Virus record (IMG/VR): IMGVR_UViG_2734482772_000013
Location: 1-8,447 of that record
DNA from: a virus
Lineage: Duplodnaviria; Heunggongvirae; Uroviricota; Caudoviricetes
Direction: 5' to 3' (one strand)
DNA length: 8,447 bases
Under the pieces are notes generated by a model. That model did not search any database, had not been told where the DNA came from, and was given only the letters and a program-made list of their open reading frames with translations. Numbering within the stretch: the stretch's first letter is position 1; every line of letters starts with the position of its first letter. Positions 1 to 8,447 of the stretch are shown here, in pieces. A program made the translations under genes and the position numbers.

Positions 1-2013
1 GTCAAAACCATTTTCGCGGGCGCTGTCTTCCGCTTCCGGTTTACGTCTTACCAGCTTCCAGTTATCCGGATGCGTGCACACACGGGAGGATTCCCCGATG
101 AATGGCGACCAGATCCCGTAAATCTGTACACTCTGTTCGCCGTAATCGTTCAGCTCATCTGCGAGGTCGTAGGCTGTGCGAATCAGGTAGTCCTTGCGCG
201 GAACAAGTACGCCACCCTGTTTTTCAATGTAGGTGGCAAAACATCCGGCATCAGCGGCAGCGAGTACCGCATCCATTGCGTCATCCTTCAGCCGTTGCGG
301 GCCTTCCGGGTTGCGTGCCATCTGGCTGGCAAGGCGGCGCAGTTCACGCCACACCTGACGGGAGGGGATGCCAAAGAACTGGAACTGGCGGACCCGATGA
401 AGGCGCGCCCAGCCGATGGCGCGCTCCACGCTCTCGGCCATTGATTTTCCGGTTTCGTGGTCAACGCGTGGTTTGCCCGTTTTCGGGTCGATTCCATCCA
501 CGGCGCGGCTGTCCAGGTTTTTTCCGATGTAGGTGGCGATGTAGCTGGTTGGCGTGCCTTTGGAGCCGTCGACGTACTCCACCTTAAAGCGCGGAGTAAT
601 ATCATTGCCCAGCTCGTGGCGGTCTTCCTGAATGGCAATATCGCGGGTGATGGCCACGATGCTGTCGATTTCTTCCGGATGAGCAAAGACCATCATATGC
701 CAGTGCACGGTGCCGTCATGGTGAGGCTCCACCGTGCGGATGCCATACCAGCGCAGGCCGTCGCGGTTCAGTTTTTTGCGGACCGCCGCAAAAAACGTGT
801 TAACCAGGTAATCGCTGGAGTCGCGCATGGTGGCCCCGTTCCATTTGGGATTCGGATGACCGTTCTCTGTTGTGGCGTGGTATTTTGACGGGCAGGTGAC
901 AGTCAGAAACACCGCTTTGTCGCCACGGGCTTCGGCCAGAAGTTCCAGTCCCTTCATGGTGGCCATCATTTCTGCCTTACGGTGAACCGGGTTACTTACT
1001 CCCGCGTAATACACTGTCTCGAGATCAATCGTGAAACCGTCTTCGTTTTCCAGTTCGAAGCTCTTCAGGAAGTCGCGGGTTTTCTCGCGCTGTGCGCGAA
1101 ACTCGCTTAACGCGTCCTGGCTCAGATAGGGTGATGTTTTTCTGGAAACCAGACAGGCGGCGCGGAGTTGTTCTTCTCTCCACTCACAACGTAACAGCCA
1201 CAGTTTGCGTTTCCACCAGTCCGCACAGGTCAGGCGAAGGATTGCGCCCGGCAGCAGTTCCGTATCCGGTTCGTTCCTCCGGTCTTTATCTGTTGTCAGT
1301 GCGTCATAATGTGGAGGCATAGCGTGCAGGTGTAACGCCATGCGGGCCAGCATCTGATACGCCTTCAGCGTTACATCCATGGTCAGTTCGCCATCAGTCG
1401 CGCCAAAGCCATCGCAGAGTTTTTCGAAGGTGCTGCTGAACATCGCTGCCGTCATGGTGGCCAGCGTCTGTATCTGGTGTTTGTTGAGCTGCGGCAGGTA
1501 AAGCAAATCGTCCAGGCGTTCGCGTCCGGCAAGGGAGCGATAACCCGGTGTCAGCCAGCGTCCGTCAGTGCGATCCAGACGTTCGAATATTTTGCGCAGG
1601 GTTCCGCGTGCATAGCGTTCCGCCTGCCAGCTCTTTTTGCCTTTCCGGCGATCGGCTTCCTGTTTTTTGCGCAGGAAGGAGAGGTGGCGAATAAGCGGAT
1701 CGCGCAGATAGTACGGCAGCAGGCGGAGCGAGGCCATGGCTTCATCCACCGCGCCGCGTGCCTGTTTTCTGGCGTCTCCTGCCAGTGTGATGGTTTTGTC
1801 CTGTTTTTCCTGTGCATCCAGGCTTTTATTAATCAGGTTGCCCAGCGGCGTGGCGGAGAACGCCGCATCAGCCATTTCCTGGCGGCGCTCATTCTCTGCC
1901 CGGTAGGCATCCAGCCAGGAGGAAAGCGCGGATTCAGGAGTGGGGATCCCCGTTCCTTCACGCCCCACTGCGTGGCGCGGTTGTTGCCAGTCCCTGATGT
2001 ACTCTGCCGTCAT
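1..2013 (-). CDS. Rolling-circle replication initiator / replication endonuclease (P2 gpA-like, HUH superfamily), partial: N-terminal ~671 aa, C-terminus beyond window start
   Basis: Hand translation of the minus strand from ATG at 2013 stays open to position 1 (671 codons). It contains TVHWHMMVF (HUH metal-binding motif, codons at 720..661) and YIATYIGK (catalytic Tyr pair). Absent from the ORF track probably because there is no in-window stop. The plus-strand ORFs listed here are antisense artefacts. Confidence 0.85.
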   Translation of the reverse strand, partial: MTAEYIRDWQQPRHAVGREGTGIPTPESALSSWLDAYRAENERRQEMADAAFSATPLGNLINKSLDAQEKQDKTITLAGDARKQARGAVDEAMASLRLLPYYLRDPLIRHLSFLRKKQEADRRKGKKSWQAERYARGTLRKIFERLDRTDGRWLTPGYRSLAGRERLDDLLYLPQLNKHQIQTLATMTAAMFSSTFEKLCDGFGATDGELTMDVTLKAYQMLARMALHLHAMPPHYDALTTDKDRRNEPDTELLPGAILRLTCADWWKRKLWLLRCEWREEQLRAACLVSRKTSPYLSQDALSEFRAQREKTRDFLKSFELENEDGFTIDLETVYYAGVSNPVHRKAEMMATMKGLELLAEARGDKAVFLTVTCPSKYHATTENGHPNPKWNGATMRDSSDYLVNTFFAAVRKKLNRDGLRWYGIRTVEPHHDGTVHWHMMVFAHPEEIDSIVAITRDIAIQEDRHELGNDITPRFKVEYVDGSKGTPTSYIATYIGKNLDSRAVDGIDPKTGKPRVDHETGKSMAESVERAIGWARLHRVRQFQFFGIPSRQVWRELRRLASQMARNPEGPQRLKDDAMDAVLAAADAGCFATYIEKQGGVLVPRKDYLIRTAYDLADELNDYGEQSVQIYGIWSPFIGESSRVCTHPDNWKLVRRKPEAEDSARENGFD

Positions 2014-2019
2014 AGTGAT

Positions 2020-2385
2020 TTACTTCGTCATGCCATTCAGGGTGTCGCGGCAGACTGTAGCCAGCCGCTGAATTTCCAGCACGGTGTCTTCTGTGTCGGC
2101 ATGGCGATGTGTGATGCGGATGCTGTCGGCAATCACATCGACGATTGCAGAGGATGGGCGCTGGTAAATGCCAATAACGGACGGTGTGCCGCCTTCAATG
2201 CGGTAAAGCCTGTAATTTCCCTCGTGGCTGTCAATCATGTAGCGACCATCAATAACAATCTTTCCGTCAGCGAGCTGCGGTACAGGCAGGGATTTCAGGT
2301 ACATGTCATAACGTTCACGCACGCGAACGGCAAGATCACGCTCTGTGTTGAGCAGGTATTCAAGAAAGTCGTTGGCGAGAATCAT
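2020..2385 (-). CDS. Hypothetical early-operon protein, 121 aa
   Basis: ORF track; SD-like AAGAGGA about 10 nt upstream of ATG; stop 6 nt before the A-gene start; position equivalent to the small ORFs preceding gene A in P2/186. Confidence 0.6.
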   Translation of the reverse strand: MILANDFLEYLLNTERDLAVRVRERYDMYLKSLPVPQLADGKIVIDGRYMIDSHEGNYRLYRIEGGTPSVIGIYQRPSSAIVDVIADSIRITHRHADTEDTVLEIQRLATVCRDTLNGMTK

Positions 2386-2457
2386 TGCGGCAATCCTCTT
2401 GATACAGATGTGCGAAGGCCTCCCGCCGCAAGGTGCAGGAAAGGCCCGGAACAGGAA

Positions 2458-2688
2458 TTAATGGAGTTTGTTTTGCTGCTGGATGAGCTGCTGAAGCTCG
2501 CGCAGATCATCCGCCAGATAGCTAAATACTGCGGCGGAGTAGGCGTTTGACAGCACGTGGCTGTGCTCATGTGACATGTTGATGAACATGATACGAGCGA
2601 CGCGTGATGCGCGGTAAAGTCTGCGGTTGATTTCAGTCTGGATGTGACGACGCTCCGCGATAGCGCGGTGCTGTTTGCGGTTTGCCAT
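2458..2688 (-). CDS. Hypothetical small basic protein, 76 aa
   Basis: ORF track; good SD (AAAGAGG) about 9 nt upstream of ATG at 2688; first gene after the non-coding terminator region. Confidence 0.55.
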   Translation of the reverse strand: MANRKQHRAIAERRHIQTEINRRLYRASRVARIMFINMSHEHSHVLSNAYSAAVFSYLADDLRELQQLIQQQNKLH

Positions 2689-2866
2689 GGTGTGGCCTCT
2701 TTGGTTGTAAGTTTTGAAAACTCACCATCCAGAGGTGGAAAACTCGGGGTGGTGAGACGTACAGGGTTTCCACAACCGGCAACCAAAGAACCCGGCCCGA
2801 CCGAAGTCGGCCCCATACGCCCCACCATAATTCGTGTGCGAAAAAGACGTGGCGATACGGTACGCA

Positions 2867-2890
2867 CAAAAAAACCGCTGGCGCGGTTGT
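2867..2890 (-). terminator. Putative rho-independent terminator for minus-strand transcription
   Basis: Read on the minus strand: AACCGC-gcca-GCGGTT stem-loop running directly into a T-run (plus strand shows A-run 2868..2874 then ccgctggcgcgg). Confidence 0.45.
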
Positions 2891-3027
2891 GCGCTTTGGT
2901 TGTCAGCGGGGTGGAAATCCCGGCACCCGTTTTATGAGGTGCAGCGGAAATGTAACCTGACTGATTGCGGCATGGCAAGCGGTTTTTTTGTGAGAACGGC
3001 ATACTAAAAAAAATCCTGATACTGCTC

Positions 3028-3052
3028 CGGCCAGCGATTTTCACTGGCCGGG
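3028..3052 (-). terminator. GC-rich hairpin immediately 3' of the SPFH gene stop; possible terminator or mRNA-stabilising stem-loop
   Basis: CCGGCCAG-cgattttca-CTGGCCGG 8-bp perfect stem starting 6 nt after the stop codon at 3058. On the minus strand a T8 run follows only about 13 nt later (3006..3013 on plus), so it is not a canonical terminator geometry. Confidence 0.4.
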
Positions 3053-3057
3053 TTTAA

Positions 3058-3888
3058 TTACTTCACCGGAACAAACGGAACAGCGGTGTTGCTGGTCATG
3101 TATTGCGGCAGCGTGCCGTTCCATTTGTTGATTGCTTCCAGCTCCATAACGCCGGGATTCTGGCGCAGAGCTTCACCGCGTAAACGAATGGCGTCGGCTT
3201 CAGCCTGGGCTTTTGTGCGAATGGCATCAGCCTGTCCGGCAGCTTCTGCGCGCAACATGTTGGCTTCTGCTTCGCGTTGCTTGACTTCCTGTTCGCGTTG
3301 CAGGGTTTTCTGGTTTGCCGTGACTTTGGCGTTAATGCTGTCGATAACGGTTGGCGGATATTCCGGTTTACCGACATAAGAGAGGCTCATGACCTGAATG
3401 CCGATAGGTGTCATTTCTGACTGAATGTCTTTAAGTGCTGAATCCAGCAGTTCAGACTTGCCACCGTCGATAAACTTATCGGTGGTCATTTTGCTGGCCA
3501 GTCGGTTGAGTGCATCGGCGATCTTCTGGCGCAGGTCAGTGTCGGTAATGTCATCCACGCCTTTGCGGTAGGTCTGAAACACTGTGGTAACTTTGGATGG
3601 ATCAACCTTGTAGGCCACACCGATGTGATAGCCGATGGTTGTGCCGTCACTCATCTGAAAGCTGAACGGCTCATCGTAGGTCTTCATTTGTTTGAAGGTC
3701 GGGAAGATGTAAACCTCGGTATTCCAGCCAGTCCAGTAGCGGCCAACGCCAACCACTTCGCCAACGCCTTTGTCGTCGCCCAGCTTGTTGACTTTGATGC
3801 CCACATTACCTGGCTCAACGCGATCGCAGCCAACCAGCAGGATGGCGGCAAAAAGCGGGAGAATCTGAAAGAGTTTGAATTTCTTCAT
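3058..3888 (-). CDS. SPFH / band-7 (prohibitin-flotillin-HflK/C family) domain lipoprotein, 276 aa
   Basis: N-terminal signal peptide with lipobox (LLVGC); core with the SPFH-like pattern GNVGIKVNKLG...EVYIFPTF; Ala/Glu-rich coiled-coil C-terminus (AEANMLRAEAAGQADAIRTKAQAEADAIRLRGEALRQNP) as in HflC/prohibitin C-terminal regions. Start overlaps the upstream stop (ATGA). Confidence 0.85.
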   Translation of the reverse strand: MKKFKLFQILPLFAAILLVGCDRVEPGNVGIKVNKLGDDKGVGEVVGVGRYWTGWNTEVYIFPTFKQMKTYDEPFSFQMSDGTTIGYHIGVAYKVDPSKVTTVFQTYRKGVDDITDTDLRQKIADALNRLASKMTTDKFIDGGKSELLDSALKDIQSEMTPIGIQVMSLSYVGKPEYPPTVIDSINAKVTANQKTLQREQEVKQREAEANMLRAEAAGQADAIRTKAQAEADAIRLRGEALRQNPGVMELEAINKWNGTLPQYMTSNTAVPFVPVK

Positions 3889-4088
3889 TGTTTGATTTCC
3901 TTGATGTACTTACTGAAAAGGCGAACAACGCCTGCCGGGTACAGCATGGCAATGAAAATGCCCAGCAATACCAGGAAGGAGCTGTCTGATGAAATCATTC
4001 GGGGGAGTAGTCCTGCATACAGAATGAGAGAGACGAGGACGCATACCAGCGCCCACATGTATGCGCGAAACCAGGTCTTTTTGTTCAT
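3885..4088 (-). CDS. Small integral membrane protein, 67 aa, two predicted TM helices; partner of the SPFH lipoprotein
   Basis: Two hydrophobic stretches (WALVCVLVSLILYAGLL and FLVLLGIFIAMLYPAGVV); SD AAGGGA about 8 nt upstream; stop overlaps the SPFH start (ATGA coupling). Confidence 0.65.
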   Translation of the reverse strand: MNKKTWFRAYMWALVCVLVSLILYAGLLPRMISSDSSFLVLLGIFIAMLYPAGVVRLFSKYIKEIKQ

Positions 4089-4099
4089 GCTGCGATCCC

Positions 4100-4396
4100 T
4101 TACTGGTTAAGGAAAAAATCAAAAACGTTATTGATGCGTTGTAATAACTCGCGCTGTATTGCTTCCGGTGTTTCTGATTCACCTGGTGACTCCAGCGTCG
4201 CGCAAAAATCCTTGATTTCATGATGGAGCGTCAGGCGAATGGCAGGGGCCGTGGTTCTGGCGTGCTCCAGCTCATCCAGCAGTGCCAACACCACTGACGG
4301 TTGTAAGCTCACGCGAGATGGTAGTGATTCATGGAGGGGTATTCTTTGCACGGCAGTCGCCAGTTCGCGTAGTTCCTGGTGGTTGATGATGCTCAT
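4100..4396 (-). CDS. Hypothetical acidic protein, 98 aa
   Basis: ORF track; SD AAGGAA about 8 nt upstream; ATGA overlap with the upstream gene's stop. Confidence 0.6.
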   Translation of the reverse strand: MSIINHQELRELATAVQRIPLHESLPSRVSLQPSVVLALLDELEHARTTAPAIRLTLHHEIKDFCATLESPGESETPEAIQRELLQRINNVFDFFLNQ

Positions 4397-4638
4397 GCTC
4401 TGGCTTCCTTCAGTAACTGGTTAAACATATTGGTAAGTGGATTGCCGCACCCGAACGGCATCGGGTTTACCTGGTAAGAGAAGCGACCACCTGTTTTGCG
4501 CTCTTTTCTTATGACTGAACCGCTACGCCAGAGTCGGCGTAACTCCGCATTAATAGCTGTGGTTGGGGTATTCAGTGCTGCGGCGATTTCTCCACCGCTA
4601 CACCCCGGATTGGCGGCGATATAGTCCAGAATGGTCAT
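4393..4638 (-). CDS. Winged-helix DNA-binding protein (putative transcriptional regulator), about 81 aa; alternative start at 4644 (83 aa)
   Basis: Helix-turn-helix then wing pattern (GGEIAAALNTPTTAINAELRRL ... VIRKERKTGGRFSYQV). ATG at 4638 overlaps the upstream stop (ATGA) and has better SD spacing (AGGAG 8 nt upstream) than ATG at 4644. Confidence 0.6.
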   Translation of the reverse strand: MTILDYIAANPGCSGGEIAAALNTPTTAINAELRRLWRSGSVIRKERKTGGRFSYQVNPMPFGCGNPLTNMFNQLLKEARA

Positions 4639-4838
4639 CTGCATGACTCCTGTACCTGTCGGATAAGGTTCACCCGCACCACGTTGGTGGCGCAGAAGTA
4701 AGTGCCGTCAGTGAGGTAGATGTGGTGTGCATCCTTTTCTGAACGGTGTTTGTCGATTGTGGTAATCAGGCGTTCGTCGACTTCGTATTCACGTCCTCTG
4801 GAGGTAAAACGAACGACAGGAAAATGCTTAATTGCCAT
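4635..4838 (-). CDS. Hypothetical protein, 67 aa
   Basis: ORF track; strong SD AAGGAGG just upstream of ATG at 4838; first gene after an 86-nt AT-rich gap. Confidence 0.6.
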   Translation of the reverse strand: MAIKHFPVVRFTSRGREYEVDERLITTIDKHRSEKDAHHIYLTDGTYFCATNVVRVNLIRQVQESCR

Positions 4839-4924
4839 TACGCCTCCTTGGCGTGTGCGAATACCTCCGCGAATGCGGATTGTTTTTACATTTTCTTATT
4901 TAACCTGTGGTTTTATTTGCTCTG

Positions 4925-5038
4925 TTATTCGCCAGTGAAAAAGCGTTCAATCTTTTTTACTGAATGAATAATTCGCATAATCCCAATGGCGCAGGCCACC
5001 GAAATAATCAGAACAAACCATGAGATAAATATACTCAT
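4925..5038 (-). CDS. Small hydrophobic peptide, 37 aa (MSIFISWFVLIISVACAIGIMRIIHSVKKIERFFTGE), single predicted TM helix; absent from the ORF track
   Basis: Hand-translated minus-strand ORF; ATG at 5038..5036 overlaps the TGA of the upstream 80-aa gene (ATGA coupling); ends TAA at 4927..4925. Composition is a hydrophobic helix followed by a basic tail. Confidence 0.45.
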   Translation of the reverse strand: MSIFISWFVLIISVACAIGIMRIIHSVKKIERFFTGE

Positions 5039-5277
5039 GCGATATTCCCCAGCTTATACGGTTCAATGTGTTCCCCGCATTCTGCGGCACAGATCAGCTC
5101 GGAAAGTTCGTTAAGTGCATCCAGATCATCAGCGTAAAAAGCAACGTCATACAAACTCCGGATTGCCCTGGTCAATGAGTCACGGGCTGCACGTTCAGCA
5201 TGAGCGCCTGATGCACTTAAGCGAAAATAAAATCGTTCAAGTGCTTTGTTAATGAGAGTTTTATATTCTTTGCCCAT
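5035..5277 (-). CDS. Hypothetical protein, 80 aa
   Basis: ORF track; SD AAAGGG about 7 nt upstream; 11-nt spacing from the upstream gene. Confidence 0.6.
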   Translation of the reverse strand: MGKEYKTLINKALERFYFRLSASGAHAERAARDSLTRAIRSLYDVAFYADDLDALNELSELICAAECGEHIEPYKLGNIA

Positions 5278-5288
5278 CGCAACGCCCT

Positions 5289-5576
5289 TTAATCTGCTTT
5301 CTGAATTTCAGCTTCTGAATCCATACAAATAATTTCGATATAAGGTTCATCGCCATTAGCCTGGCGTGCCTTTTCAGCTTCACTAATGATTTCTCGTACG
5401 GTCTGGTACGGAAGTTCCACAAGCAGTCGCGTGCCGTTCAGATAAACGTAAGTGGCTTCGTTGACTCCGTTTTTACCCGCCGGAGCCACTCCATCAATAG
5501 CGGATGCGCGTAATAACAGTTCACCGCGAAAATCAATAAAACGGATAAATACACCTTGTGCATGCTCTTTGGTCAT
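5289..5576 (-). CDS. Hypothetical protein, about 95 aa (ORF track gives a 115-aa version from 5636 that would overlap the upstream gene by 50 nt)
   Basis: ATG at 5576 is preceded by AGGTG and lies 10 nt after the upstream stop at 5587; chosen over the longer ORF for operon packing. Confidence 0.55.
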   Translation of the reverse strand: MTKEHAQGVFIRFIDFRGELLLRASAIDGVAPAGKNGVNEATYVYLNGTRLLVELPYQTVREIISEAEKARQANGDEPYIEIICMDSEAEIQKAD

Positions 5577-5586
5577 AAAGCACCTG

Positions 5587-5925
5587 TTATAAATCAGCCT
5601 GTTTAATAAAACTTTGTCCGCGAAGCAGACGATCAACCGTGCGTAGTGCTTCGTATAATGTGAAATCCTGCCCGAACTGATTGTCGCCGCAGCTCAATGC
5701 AAAAATGCGGTTTCCGGTAAACGGATTGCGTGGGCATTTGTGGACCACGATTCCAGCTTTCTCAATCAACCAGGCATGCTCGCCGATTTGTTTTACTGGG
5801 TAGCCATCCGGCGTTGCGTGTGTTTCGCTCAGGCTGTAGCGAGAGCTGCTACGTGATGCGCTGGTAGCGAAACGGTTAGCGTGGCGTTCTGTTCCGGTGC
5901 GAAAATTACGGCGTTGCTTCAGCAT
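5587..5925 (-). CDS. Hypothetical protein, 112 aa
   Basis: ORF track; AGGTG SD about 10 nt upstream; starts 14 nt after the cox-like stop. Confidence 0.6.
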   Translation of the reverse strand: MLKQRRNFRTGTERHANRFATSASRSSSRYSLSETHATPDGYPVKQIGEHAWLIEKAGIVVHKCPRNPFTGNRIFALSCGDNQFGQDFTLYEALRTVDRLLRGQSFIKQADL

Positions 5926-5939
5926 AAAATGACACCTCG

Positions 5940-6218
5940 TTATTTTGTCATCTGCACGTATTTCTCTGCGCTCCTGATTGTTTTCAGGAAAAGAGCGAAG
6001 AGATTTACTGTGCGTCTTGAGTTCTTTTCACCCTGGTTGATGGGAATCGAACCTCTGTCAGCCTGTCTTTTCACTGTGTTAACAGCTTGTTTGGTACGCT
6101 TTGCGTAATCTTTCAGGCTTTCTTCAAGTATTGGTAATCCATGCTCATCGCGGTATGGGTAGAACGCCGCTAAACGCTCAATGTCTTCCTGTTCGTATGT
6201 ATTCAAGACCTCTGCCAT
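5940..6218 (-). CDS. Cox/Apl-like small DNA-binding regulator-excisionase, 92 aa (first gene of the early operon)
   Basis: Position (first gene divergent from the repressor) and size (P2 Cox is about 91 aa); putative HTH segment LKDYAKRTKQAVNTVKRQADRGSIP. Function assigned by synteny and motif, not by a measured alignment. Confidence 0.55.
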   Translation of the reverse strand: MAEVLNTYEQEDIERLAAFYPYRDEHGLPILEESLKDYAKRTKQAVNTVKRQADRGSIPINQGEKNSRRTVNLFALFLKTIRSAEKYVQMTK

Positions 6219-6309
6219 GATGTGATAACCTGTTCTATCTGTGGTTATTTGTTACCGAAAGTCGTCGGTAGACTACTTTTGAGATTAATTTAGTCGTCTG
6301 GAGACCACC
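6219..6309. promoter_or_regulatory. Divergent immunity switch region (expected early and repressor promoters plus operators)
   Basis: 91-bp gap between divergent cox-like and C-like genes; 14-bp direct repeat AGTCGTCgGtAGAC (6260..6273) and AGTCGTCtGgAGAC (6292..6305), 12/14 identical, 32 bp apart. -35/-10 elements could not be assigned confidently. Confidence 0.5.
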
Positions 6310-6621
6310 ATGTCAAGTGGGTATGAAAAAAAACTGAAAGAGATACGGAAGAGTGAAGGGTTAACTCAAGTTGAGTTTGCCGATGTTACCGGGATAAATC
6401 TCGGAACTATAAAGAATTATGAGAGTGGCAAAAGAGAGGTTGGTTTAAGCGTTGTCGATCGCGTAATTAATTCTAAAGATTTCGAAAAGTACACAATGTG
6501 GCTTATGACGGGAAAAACAAATGAGGCTGCAGGGCAGATCAGTCCGTCTCTCTCCCCTGATGGGCCAGAAAACACATCGCCTTCTCAAAAACTCCGCAAA
6601 ACTGGCACACAGCCCGGCTAA
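6310..6621 (+). CDS. Immunity repressor, XRE-family HTH (P2 C-type), 103 aa
   Basis: HTH_XRE pattern (LTQVEFADVTGINLGTIKNYESGKR); size and position immediately upstream of int on the same strand as in P2 (C about 99 aa); GGAGA SD 7 nt upstream. Confidence 0.85.
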   Translation: MSSGYEKKLKEIRKSEGLTQVEFADVTGINLGTIKNYESGKREVGLSVVDRVINSKDFEKYTMWLMTGKTNEAAGQISPSLSPDGPENTSPSQKLRKTGTQPG

Positions 6622-6670
6622 TCATGGAGCGCTGGGGGCATGGTGGTCTTGTAACGCTGGGGTTTCACGA

Positions 6671-7648
6671 ATGAGCATAAAATCAATTCCTGGAGGGTAT
6701 CTTCTTGACATGCGCCCAGAGGGGCGTAAAGGCAAACGCATTCGCAAAAAATTTAAAACGAAATCGGATGCAGTTTTATATGAGCGGTGGGTGCTGGCGC
6801 AACAGCATAACAATGAGTGGAAAGGAAACTCCATTGATCGCCGCCCGCTGTCAGTGCTTATTGACTTGTGGTGGAAATACCACGGCCAGCTAATGAAGTC
6901 AGGGCATAACACGCGCCTTAAATTGCTGCGCTTGAGTGAGGCAATGGATGACCCGTGCGTGCATAAACTTAATACAACGATGCTCACCGAGCTACGTGTG
7001 TCCAGGATAGAGCAGGGGATACAGCCCAGCACCATAAATCGAGAGATTGGGGCGTTAAGCGCGATGTTTAGTGCGCTCATCTCTTCCGGCCATTTCCTTA
7101 ACGATAACCCCATTCAAGGTCTGAAAGGAATGAAGGTTAACGAGCGCGAAATGGGATATCTGAGTAAGTCTGAATGTGTTCAGTTGCTGGATGCACTGGC
7201 TGAAAATCCCGATGAGCGGCTGGCTGTCGAAATTCTTTTGTCGACCGGGGCACGATGGGGCGAGGTAGCGGCACTGGAGCAGCGCCGCGTTCTTCATTGT
7301 CGAATCATTTTTTCAAAAACGAAGAACAGCAAAAACCGTACCGTTCCTATTTCTGAAAGCCTGTTTGAAAAGATCAAAAAACGGGGCGGGAAACTGGTGT
7401 TTCCGACGCTGGATTATCCATTGGTTCGCGATGTCATCAAAACGGTCGCACCTGATGTTCCTGACGGCCAGGCTGTTCATGCGCTGCGCCACACCTTCGC
7501 CAGTCATTTCATGATGAACGGCGGCAATATTCTGACACTCCAGAAAATTCTGGGGCACGCAAAGATTCAGACAACGATGATTTATGCCCATCTTGCGCCG
7601 GATTACTTGCAGGATGCGGTGAGATTTAATCCACTAGGAGGTGCTTAA
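6671..7648 (+). CDS. int: Tyrosine site-specific integrase (P2/186 family), 325 aa
   Basis: C-terminal catalytic motifs (TGARWGE; HALRHTFASHFMMNGG; LQKILGH; MIYAH with the catalytic Tyr). N-terminus MSIKS...GRKGKRIRKKF resembles P2-family Int as I recall it. The 50 aa upstream in the 6521 ORF are not integrase-like and overlap the repressor gene, so start is placed at 6671. Confidence 0.95.
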   Translation: MSIKSIPGGYLLDMRPEGRKGKRIRKKFKTKSDAVLYERWVLAQQHNNEWKGNSIDRRPLSVLIDLWWKYHGQLMKSGHNTRLKLLRLSEAMDDPCVHKLNTTMLTELRVSRIEQGIQPSTINREIGALSAMFSALISSGHFLNDNPIQGLKGMKVNEREMGYLSKSECVQLLDALAENPDERLAVEILLSTGARWGEVAALEQRRVLHCRIIFSKTKNSKNRTVPISESLFEKIKKRGGKLVFPTLDYPLVRDVIKTVAPDVPDGQAVHALRHTFASHFMMNGGNILTLQKILGHAKIQTTMIYAHLAPDYLQDAVRFNPLGGA

Positions 7649-7650
7649 GA

Positions 7651-8013
7651 ATGATGCATCCTTTAGATAAACTTAAAGAAATGGCAACGCTCGATAATTT
7701 TGCGCGTTTTCTCAATGAGTCGTCTGCGAATGAAAAATGTTTGTCGTGTGGCGATACGGATATGTACATGTATTTGACGAATATTGTTGAGGTGGGGCCT
7801 GAGCCGAAAACTGCTGAGGAGTGTAATTTAGGCACTCTTGTTATGCTTGATTATATTGGCCCATTTACTGGGTATCCTGGATATGAGGGACATGATCGGG
7901 AAAATATCCATAACTATGAATTCAGACTTACCTGCAACAGATGTGGGTTTGTTCATCGTTACTCGGCCCGAGCTTTTATGAGCTGGGTAGGTAAGCAGGG
8001 TGATGACAAATGA
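7651..8013 (+). CDS. Hypothetical protein with two CxxC pairs (putative zinc-ribbon), 120 aa; cargo gene coupled to int
   Basis: Strong SD (AGGAGGTG) 7 nt upstream of ATG, which lies 2 nt after the int stop; Cys pairs CLSC and CNRC about 62 residues apart; no family recognised. Confidence 0.65.
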   Translation: MMHPLDKLKEMATLDNFARFLNESSANEKCLSCGDTDMYMYLTNIVEVGPEPKTAEECNLGTLVMLDYIGPFTGYPGYEGHDRENIHNYEFRLTCNRCGFVHRYSARAFMSWVGKQGDDK

Positions 8014-8447
8014 TGCCGGACAGCACTCCTATTTTACCGTTCAGAAAAAAGAAAGAGAATGCCTATAATGTATCCAACAACCAAGTGACAGGAAGTGGTA
8101 ATGATGGAGGCGATGGCATGAATGACGACCTTGAACGGCGAGTTAGTTGCCTGGAAAGTGATGTAACTGAAATCAAAAACAACCTGATTACTCTCACCAC
8201 GAGAAGCGAATCCTTTGCCACCAAATTTGATGTACTGGAGATTCGTGAAGGGTTGCGGCTTGAGATGGCAGAATCGCGCCAATCCCTGAAGTCTGAGATG
8301 GCTGATTTGCGCCAGTCTCTGAAAGTTGAGATGGCTGAGCATCGTACTGAACTTCAGAAATCATTTGCAAATCAGACCTGGCTACTCACAGGTATTGTCC
8401 TGTCTGCGATGGCTGTGCTTGTGGCTGTTGTTACTGTTATTAAGTAA
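8010..8447 (+). CDS. Coiled-coil, C-terminally membrane-anchored protein (XhlA/DUF1640-like architecture), 145 aa; possible alternative start at 8118 (109 aa)
   Basis: ATG overlaps the upstream stop (ATGA); C-terminal hydrophobic helix WLLTGIVLSAMAVLVAVVTVIK; central tandem 11-residue repeats; the first 36 residues are low-complexity and an in-frame ATG at 8118 has a GGAGG SD 7 nt upstream. Confidence 0.7.
   Translation: MMPDSTPILPFRKKKENAYNVSNNQVTGSGNDGGDGMNDDLERRVSCLESDVTEIKNNLITLTTRSESFATKFDVLEIREGLRLEMAESRQSLKSEMADLRQSLKVEMAEHRTELQKSFANQTWLLTGIVLSAMAVLVAVVTVIK
8262..8360 (+). repeat. Three tandem 33-bp repeats inside the 8010..8447 CDS encoding hendecad repeats EMAESRQSLKS / EMADLRQSLKV / EMAEHRTELQK
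   Basis: Direct reading: repeat units start at 8262, 8295 and 8328, each beginning gagatggc. Confidence 0.8.

Follow-up and report, generated by a model that had tools for sequence, protein, structure and literature searches.

Three tandem repeats of 33 bp near the end of a phage-derived DNA raise the question of what kind of helix they encode, whether one that lies on the membrane surface or one that associates with other helices into a stalk. The DNA, which is referred to as the window, is the whole stretch of 8,447 nucleotides analysed in this work (positions 1 to 8,447 of the IMG/VR virus record IMGVR_UViG_2734482772_000013, Caudoviricetes). The repeats are located at 8262-8360 in a small gene, orfB, that follows another small gene, orfA. 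The first-pass annotation of the window had favoured a helix that binds or remodels the membrane surface ahead of a C-terminal anchor. The findings in this work point to the other answer, where the repeats probably encode the rod-like coiled-coil stalk of a small C-tail-anchored prophage protein that varies in length by whole repeat units.

Repeat array at the DNA and protein levels

The units of the array are as follows.

8229-8261, plus strand: hendecad unit 0, DVLEIREGLRL, recognised at the protein level only
8262-8294, plus strand: hendecad unit 1, EMAESRQSLKS, missing from the two-unit Shigella flexneri allele
8295-8327, plus strand: hendecad unit 2, EMADLRQSLKV, duplicated exactly in the four-unit Shigella allele
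8328-8360, plus strand: hendecad unit 3, EMAEHRTELQK, the sole EMA unit left in the single-unit alleles P0035 and P0038

The three EMA units are consecutive and in frame within the plus-strand open reading frame (ORF) 8010-8447. The coordinates, frame, and peptides that had been reported for the three 33-bp units were reproduced exactly upon re-reading. Tandem Repeats Finder reported the region 8260-8338 with a period of 33, 2.4 copies, 83% matches, and a score of 107. The best 66-nt stretch exhibits 44 matches at lag 33, a value reached by none of 5000 codon shuffles of the ORF, where the mean was 29.5 and the maximum was 37 with all lags from 9 to 60 considered. The protein exhibits 14 lag-11 identities in 22 residues (maximum of 9 in 5000 residue shuffles), and its self-similarity peaks at lags 11 and 22 only.

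The units are not equally alike. Units 1 and 2 are identical at 25 of 33 nucleotides and 8 of 11 residues. Unit 3 is identical to either of them at 16 of 33 nucleotides, essentially the first 11 bases (GAGATGGCTGA), and at 5-6 of 11 residues. The likeness at the DNA level is clear for units 1 and 2 only. We have also identified the degenerate unit 0 in register just upstream of unit 1. It matches the other units at 13-14 of 33 nucleotides and 2-3 of 11 residues, and it exhibits the same hydrophobic and charge pattern without DNA similarity. Because this unit is in register, the array at the protein level consists of four hendecads (residues 74-117), and the three EMA repeats are the second to fourth of them.

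The window differs from allele L011 (96% identical) by 12 synonymous and one non-synonymous codon over 110 codons. This ratio marks the plus frame as the selected frame, and judging from the sequence comparison the repeat gene is under purifying selection in that frame. Antisense coding of the repeat region was considered and rejected, since stops are present in all three minus-strand frames across 8229-8393.

Anatomy of the orfB protein

The gene and the parts of its product outside the array are as follows.

8010-8447, plus strand: orfB, long form of 145 aa (phrog_9415), the repeat-bearing gene, probable C-tail-anchored stalk protein
8130-8207, plus strand: N-terminal heptad helix, residues 41-66, with core residues L41, V45, L48, V52, I55, L59, and L62 at 4-3-4-3-4-3 spacing
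8214-8231, plus strand: putative beta-layer motif F69-A-T-K-F-D74, assigned by consensus fit, heptad register, and the AlphaFold2 break at residues 67-71
8373-8441, plus strand: predicted C-terminal transmembrane anchor, residues 122-144, hydrophobic run TWLLTGIVLSAMAVLVAVVTVI, within the AlphaFold2 helix 72-144

The orfB protein matches phrog_9415 (3.6e-38), a phrog of unknown function, and no Pfam, NCBIfam, or PADLOC model matched it above threshold. A weak match to TIGR04211 (YgiM-type) covers the helix and the anchor (4.5e-5; 23.1 against a cut-off of 65), and that family has a similar layout with a cytoplasmic helical part and a C-terminal anchor. The layout presumably also resembles that of the small C-tail-anchored Escherichia coli proteins ElaB, YqjD, and YgaM (DUF883) and of phage XhlA. 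Membership of XhlA or DUF883 was rejected because no such Pfam match was obtained at E <= 1.

The AlphaFold2 model of orfB was built as a monomer with 11 homologues as input. It consists of a disordered tail (residues 1-34), a helix (36-66), a break (67-71), and a continuous helix (72-144). The block means of pLDDT are 92 and 94 over residues 41-60 and 93-95 across residues 81-120, which include the repeats. The prediction is therefore helical and not a globular non-helical fold, the outcome that would have told against the hendecad reading of the first-pass annotation. The first 36 residues form a variable, Gly-rich N-terminus.

The break in the model coincides with the putative beta-layer. 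When the heptad register of residues 41-66 is carried on, S66, E67, and S68 occupy positions a, b, and c, F69-A70-T71 fall at d, and K72, F73, and D74 follow. The published beta-layer consensus is [aliphatic]-A-T-K-[polar]-[DE], built as a, b, c, a three-residue beta-layer, and e, f, g, as in the nonad IAN-MAT-KDD, and it was trimeric in all structures of that study (Hartmann et al., 2016; PMC4786415). The same study described the beta-layer as prominent in DUF1640 membrane proteins at the point where the C-terminal stalk begins. The orfB motif deviates from the consensus at two positions, with F in place of the aliphatic residue in all alleles and F73 in place of the polar residue in the window allele. 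Codon 73 (8226-8228) encodes S or A, mostly S, in nearly all other alleles (FATKSD, FATKAD), and F73 is the sole non-synonymous difference from L011 in the 110-codon core.

Past the beta-layer, the hydrophobic positions are V75/I78/L82, M86/S89/L93, M97/L100/L104, M108/H111/L115, and F119. The hendecad core thus corresponds to unit positions 2, 5, and 9 with 3-4-4 spacing (a/d/h), and the pattern runs straight into the anchor, after which only K145 and the stop codon remain.

Relatives of orfB and the link to DUF1640

A profile built from 11 homologues matched 1272 cluster representatives at E <= 1e-3 and 107 at E <= 1e-10. The relatives that were read share a common plan that consists of a helix or head, an (L/F)ATKxD motif, units of the type [D/E]-h-A-x-h-R-x-E-h-K-x, and a C-terminal anchor, and their N-terminal parts differ. 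The relatives keep the 11-residue periodicity, which agrees with the expectation of the first-pass annotation. The longest in-register run according to a simple seven-feature rule is 1-13 units in the small relatives listed, 34 in a protein of 3006 residues, and 4 in the window. The repeat unit is in itself unsurprising, being a standard building block of a very large family, and this type of stalk is already known.

The scanned set of 145 sequences consists of 144 profile hits and the window protein. PF07798 (CCDC90-like, formerly DUF1640) was matched by 99 of the 145 at E <= 1e-3, and the window protein is not among them. The relative P0062 is a full-length PF07798 member (57 bits), P0056 and P0046 score above the curated cut-off with just their stalk and anchor, and the closest relatives of orfB (P0048 and P0044) scored 19-24 bits. 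Head-like N-termini were recognised in 4 of 148 representatives by pattern search. The alignment of the orfB family to eight head-bearing DUF1640 proteins using hhalign gave a probability of 98.3% (E 1.9e-14) over residues 72-118, although these 47 columns are repetitive coiled coil where convergence or inflation is possible.

The likeness to DUF1640 extends to the arrangement of the parts. In DUF1640/CCDC90-like proteins (PF07798), which include MCUR1, CCDC90B, yeast Fmp32, and many bacterial proteins, an ATKxD beta-layer opens the C-terminal stalk as it does in orfB. Bacterial members also share [DE]-h-A-x-h-R-x-E-h-K-x hendecads and a single C-terminal membrane anchor with orfB. By comparison with DUF1640, orfB has a heptad helix and a Gly-rich tail instead of the head, is phage-borne, and has a Cys-rich partner. 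The DUF1640/CCDC90-like family is reportedly trimeric, according to work of Adlakha and colleagues in 2019.

Two other kinds of stalk were compared. Hendecad stalks such as those of trimeric autotransporter adhesins share the 11-residue period, the a/d/h core, and whole-repeat length variation with orfB, whereas orfB is predicted to be cytoplasmic and tail-anchored, with a very short stalk of four units, two of which have a polar d position. Hendecad coiled-coil families have reportedly been treated by Martinez-Goikoetxea and Lupas in 2023. The alpha/beta coiled coils of the Tcar0761/DUF3782 type share the nonad logic, where SES-FAT-KFD of orfB corresponds to the nonad quoted above, and their published constructs were trimeric (Hartmann et al., 2016; PMC4786415). 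In contrast to them, orfB has a single beta-layer followed by hendecads without a nonad run, and F precedes ATK.

Sequence searches of the PDB with the family profile and two canonical DUF1640 relatives returned nothing significant for the orfB family. The sub-threshold matches were trimeric coiled coils and apolipoproteins, and 6h9l, a weak hit, is listed with three chains. Two scans of contigs chosen as one genome per species gave pattern matches, none of which was confirmed by tblastn. Full-text literature searches on tail-anchored coiled-coil proteins of prophages gave no relevant result.

Two features were also observed among the relatives. The RSExFATKxD block occurs two to five times at a spacing of about 16 residues (nonad plus heptad) in P0091, P0098, P0066, P0086, and P0092 and in the loci L053 (3896-4309) and L056 (3893-4300). 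These blocks would be serial beta-layers, and the phage-borne membrane proteins with them would contain a natural alpha/beta coiled coil. The protein of 3006 residues, P0080, carries its approximately 34 in-register units (ANVTILRGEID / SNLATARNDLQ) between fibre-like and beta-propeller-like regions, and it matched the orfB-family profile through its repeats alone.

Coiled-coil stalk or membrane-surface helix

A period of 11 residues is expected both of right-handed coiled coils and of helices on membrane surfaces. On a helical wheel at 11/3 residues per turn, the units of the family place acidic residues at positions 4, 8, and 1, core residues at 5, 9, and 2, and basic residues at 6 and 10. 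Positions 2, 5, and 9 are hydrophobic in 91-96% of the family units, with these positions having been used in the selection of the units; positions 4 and 8 lie outside the selection rule and all others inside it, so the frequencies of the latter are partly circular. A narrow seam with flanks of opposite charge suits parallel helices lying side by side in a homo-oligomer and not a class A lipid-binding helix. In a lipid-seeking helix of class A, the hydrophobic face is broad and is bordered by basic residues on both edges.

The first-pass annotation had named both kinds of helix as typical of the period and preferred a hendecad helix lying in the plane of the membrane or remodelling its surface, as in apolipoproteins, synuclein, and perilipins. 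The right-handed coiled coil is retained here on the beta-layer, the narrow seam, and the DUF1640 alignment, and the membrane-surface helix is disfavoured by the seam and the charge. We regard the latter as quite unlikely for orfB, although the proteins named do have 11-residue periodicity and the orfB repeats directly precede an anchor. The Pfam Apolipoprotein model is matched by 93 of the 145 scanned sequences at E <= 1e-3, and a canonical DUF1640 relative matches apolipoprotein A-IV chains (2.7e-5). However, all matches to the model are far under the curated 90 bits (13.7 for the window protein; 52.5 for the best of 10 relatives scanned individually), and they appear to reflect a shared period and not a shared function. 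The orfB array has the 11/22-residue periodicity and E-x-x-L-R-x-x-L-type units of apolipoproteins A-I, A-IV, and E (PF01442), but the proline-punctuated 22-mers are absent, with no proline punctuation in the array, and the seam is narrow with flanks of opposite charge. This is an analogy of period and not membership.

The hydrophobic arc is just three positions wide. The repeats have a net charge of -1 to -2, and the acidic flank is ill-suited to anionic bacterial membranes. The HeliQuest-type discriminant is -0.06, and the power at 3.67 residues per turn lacks significance, since 440 of 2000 shuffles reach it. The mean hydrophobic moment of 0.25-0.28 is not far under the comparators, apoA-I (0.35) and alpha-synuclein (0.27), and it does not discriminate. 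The hydrophobic-moment check therefore lends no support to a membrane-binding or remodelling role and is weak evidence either way. The array moreover begins at a beta-layer, which is an oligomerisation element.

A different reading of the same residues is that the charged repeats form a monomeric single alpha-helix that acts as a spacer. Residues E, R, K, and Q are abundant in the region, hydrophobic ones are few in the window allele, and the AlphaFold2 model has a long isolated helix. The pairs at i and i+4 are nevertheless not of the E-K or E-R type (E1-L5, E4-E8, R6-K10), the seam positions 2, 5, and 9 are hydrophobic in the family at the frequency given above (as part of the selection rule), and the heptad helix and beta-layer ahead of the repeats indicate an oligomer. 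A single-helix spacer is very unlikely.

In the preferred reading of a coiled-coil stalk, parallel helices would come together, with a trimer the likeliest state by analogy with beta-layer proteins, and would form an almost straight hendecad coiled coil at the inner membrane, on its cytoplasmic side. Several points weigh against this reading and its link to DUF1640. Position 5 is weak in the window repeats (S, L, and H), which leaves two to three hydrophobic core residues per unit and a weaker seam than that of the family. The AlphaFold2 model is a monomer only, and the oligomer is putative. The window protein scored 10.8 bits against PF07798 (E 0.45; profile positions 47-125) where the gathering cut-off is 33.5, and it has no DUF1640 head of the F-D-T..L....G.. 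type, its residues 1-66 being the disordered tail and the heptad helix. The low score and the missing head make orfB a relative of the stalk-and-anchor part of DUF1640 and not a member of the Pfam family. Profile scores among repetitive coiled coils are open to inflation, and the same relatives match apolipoprotein models below threshold. The spacing from beta-layer to anchor modulo 11 is only partly conserved in distant relatives, with a noisy 8 of 24 in one class.

Length variants of the array

The lengths of closer homologues step by 11. They are 87, 98, 109, and 120 residues when counted from the inner start M37 and 123, 134, 145, and 156 residues from the upstream start, and the four lengths in each series stand for one to four EMA units in that order. 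The first-pass annotation had anticipated length variants between strains by gain or loss of units, and such alleles were indeed found, though they are rare. At least 10 contigs carry the four-unit allele, among them three NCBI assemblies. One copy is named Shigella dysenteriae by its source, and the additional unit of this allele is a base-for-base duplication of unit 2. The two-unit allele occurs in at least nine contigs (Shigella flexneri according to one source) and is without unit 1. Both alleles are found at the same int-orfA-orfB-btuC locus in independent assemblies and are otherwise near-identical. The gene is present in 86 complete E. coli genomes, and each of the 60 listed has three units, with exactly 330 bases from M37 to the stop.

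The breakpoints of the insertions and deletions fall in identical unit starts (GAGATGGC, GAGATGGCTGA), which fits slippage or unequal exchange; the changes would arise by either process at these short identical starts. One unit of 11 residues is equivalent to three helical turns, so that gain or loss of a unit would make the stalk approximately 1.6 nm longer or shorter (1.5 Å per residue) without rotation relative to the anchor. Whole units keep the angle between the N-terminal part and the anchor, which may be why such changes are tolerated and only whole units are seen. The alleles that differ by whole hendecads (one to four EMA units) on a near-identical background constitute a natural test series for stalk length.

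The same alleles could be taken as signs of a hypermutable contingency locus, where frequent expansion and contraction would switch or tune the protein between strains. Alleles of one, two, three, and four EMA units do occur on closely related backgrounds, and the unit boundaries share 8-11 nt of identity. However, the units are 76% and 48% identical and differ at synonymous sites as well, three units are constant in the listed E. coli genomes, all changes are in frame and so do not switch the protein off, and the variants are confined to a few Shigella and Salmonella lineages. A contingency locus is highly improbable on this evidence.

One further allele, P0027, carries a deletion of 25 residues, which is not a multiple of 11, in a single ENA contig of 1.1 kb. 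This deletion may be an assembly artefact or a disabled allele.

Genomic setting of orfB

At its right end, the window has 848 bases that are matched along their entire length by 86 complete E. coli chromosomes. In E. coli strain GF31, the surroundings are a P2-like prophage with terminase, portal, ParM, replication endonuclease, and small early genes, followed on the opposite strand by a helix-turn-helix repressor, a tyrosine integrase, two hypothetical genes, and then the host gene btuC. By comparison with these annotated chromosomes, orfB is located at the att end of a P2-like prophage of E. coli, where it follows the repressor and the integrase. The genes that precede orfB in the window are as follows.

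6310-6621, plus strand: helix-turn-helix repressor (P2 C-type), from the ORF, the L001 annotation, and the helix-turn-helix Pfam families in its counterparts
6710-7648, plus strand: tyrosine integrase, Pfam Int_N 1.9e-28 and Phage_integrase 2.7e-20, and the L001 annotation
7651-8013, plus strand: orfA, 120 aa, Cys-rich, whose stop overlaps the orfB start (ATGA)

The start of the integrase at 6710 is taken from the L001 annotation, and the mechanical ORF begins at 6521. The repressor is the first gene of a rightward lysogeny gene string. The repressor, integrase, orfA, and orfB are all on the plus strand and overlap or are spaced by at most about 90 bases. In P2 and 186, one promoter drives the repressor and int in lysogens. 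The genes orfA and orfB would share the repressor-int transcript, and the location of the pair within the repressor-integrase string suggests that it is made in lysogens.

There are two candidate starts for orfB. The ATG at 8010, which overlaps the orfA stop, gives 145 aa, and the ATG at 8118 (M37) gives 109 aa. Two sequence features accompany them.

8106-8120, plus strand: GGAGG (8106-8110) located 7 nt ahead of the ATG at 8118 (alternative start M37), from sequence
8040-8069 (L001 12441-12470), plus strand: promoter-like site TTCAGA-18-TATAAT in the N-terminal extension, a consensus match only

M37 is invariant in the homologue alignment. Many annotations begin there, and public records give either 145 or 109 aa. 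Ahead of M37, the reading frame stays open in all alleles examined, yet these 36-46 codons are poorly conserved except for a Gly-rich run that coincides with the ribosome-binding site. The promoter-like sequence is conserved from allele to allele.

Outside the window, at L001 12974-12998 and 126 nt beyond the orfB stop, a strong terminator-like hairpin (GGCCGCTCTGCGGCC) with a T-run after it was observed. This hairpin between orfB and btuC may be the end of the lysogeny transcript or part of the attachment-site region.

The orfA-orfB pair and its proposed role

The orfA protein (phrog_4293) has two invariant CxxC pairs, C30-x2-C33 and C95-x2-C98, which are zinc-ribbon-like, and a conserved N-terminal motif (..DNFARFL..). 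A homologue of orfA directly precedes, and usually overlaps, the orfB-type gene in every other locus examined. The pair is found in 186-like prophages with orfB of 45-49% identity at different integration sites, in a Klebsiella P2-like element, in Klebsiella phage ST101-KPC2phi6.1 with a minimal orfB of 70 residues, and in four viral contigs. In three of these viral contigs (L053, L055, and L056), it is located upstream of int and not downstream. This conservation across loci indicates a unit tied to the lysogeny region. The module of phrog_4293 and phrog_9415 is conserved beside the repressor and integrase in P2-like, 186-like, and other temperate phages.

For the role of the pair, we tentatively propose a tether, exclusion, or defence function, which is possible rather than probable. 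The orfB protein would work with the translationally coupled Cys-rich orfA product. In lysogens, its stalk would keep orfA, or some other ligand, at a fixed distance from the inner membrane, and orfB would serve as a membrane tether or as a superinfection-exclusion or defence device. The interval between integrase and att of P2-like prophages has been reported as a minor defence hotspot with 3% of their systems (PMC13586616).

No search result points directly to a function of the pair. No Pfam family matched orfA, its structure prediction was poor, and no fold could be assigned to it. The tblastn search of orfB against 50,697 phage records found nothing, to which the low-complexity filter may contribute. 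The tblastn search of orfA against phage records found four Klebsiella records only at 23-27% identity and no close copy. No PADLOC-DB 2.0 family matched orfA or orfB at E <= 1.

Two more specific roles were weighed. The pair could be a toxin-antitoxin or abortive-infection pair, where tail-anchored orfB, once freed from Cys-rich orfA, damages the membrane, and the prophage is stabilised or infected cells are killed. Two small overlapping genes at a prophage end, their strict conservation as a pair, a membrane-inserted partner, and the reported hotspot would all fit such a pair. The PADLOC result speaks against it, a single anchor helix followed by one residue is a poor pore former, and proteins of the DUF1640 type occur widely beyond mobile elements and carry various heads, which points to a role as scaffold. 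We consider this role unlikely. A doubtful but broader proposal is that orfA and a trimeric tail-anchored orfB form an undescribed lysogen-expressed module of temperate enterobacterial phages, always beside the repressor and integrase, which would exclude or abort superinfection or control lysogeny from the cytoplasmic membrane face, with the hendecad number as a functional distance under diversifying pressure.

Other genes in the window

The minus strand of window positions 1-3044 is GC-rich with many overlapping mechanical ORFs. According to the annotation of genomes with 96-97% identity, it is the 3' portion of a P2-type replication endonuclease gene that runs off the end of the window. An SPFH/Band 7 protein of 276 aa (Pfam 1.1e-30), whose N-terminus resembles a lipoprotein signal, is encoded on the minus strand, and a hydrophobic ORF of 67 aa is next after its gene. 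Both are located within 3058-4088 among the prophage early genes. The two may constitute another membrane-directed accessory pair.

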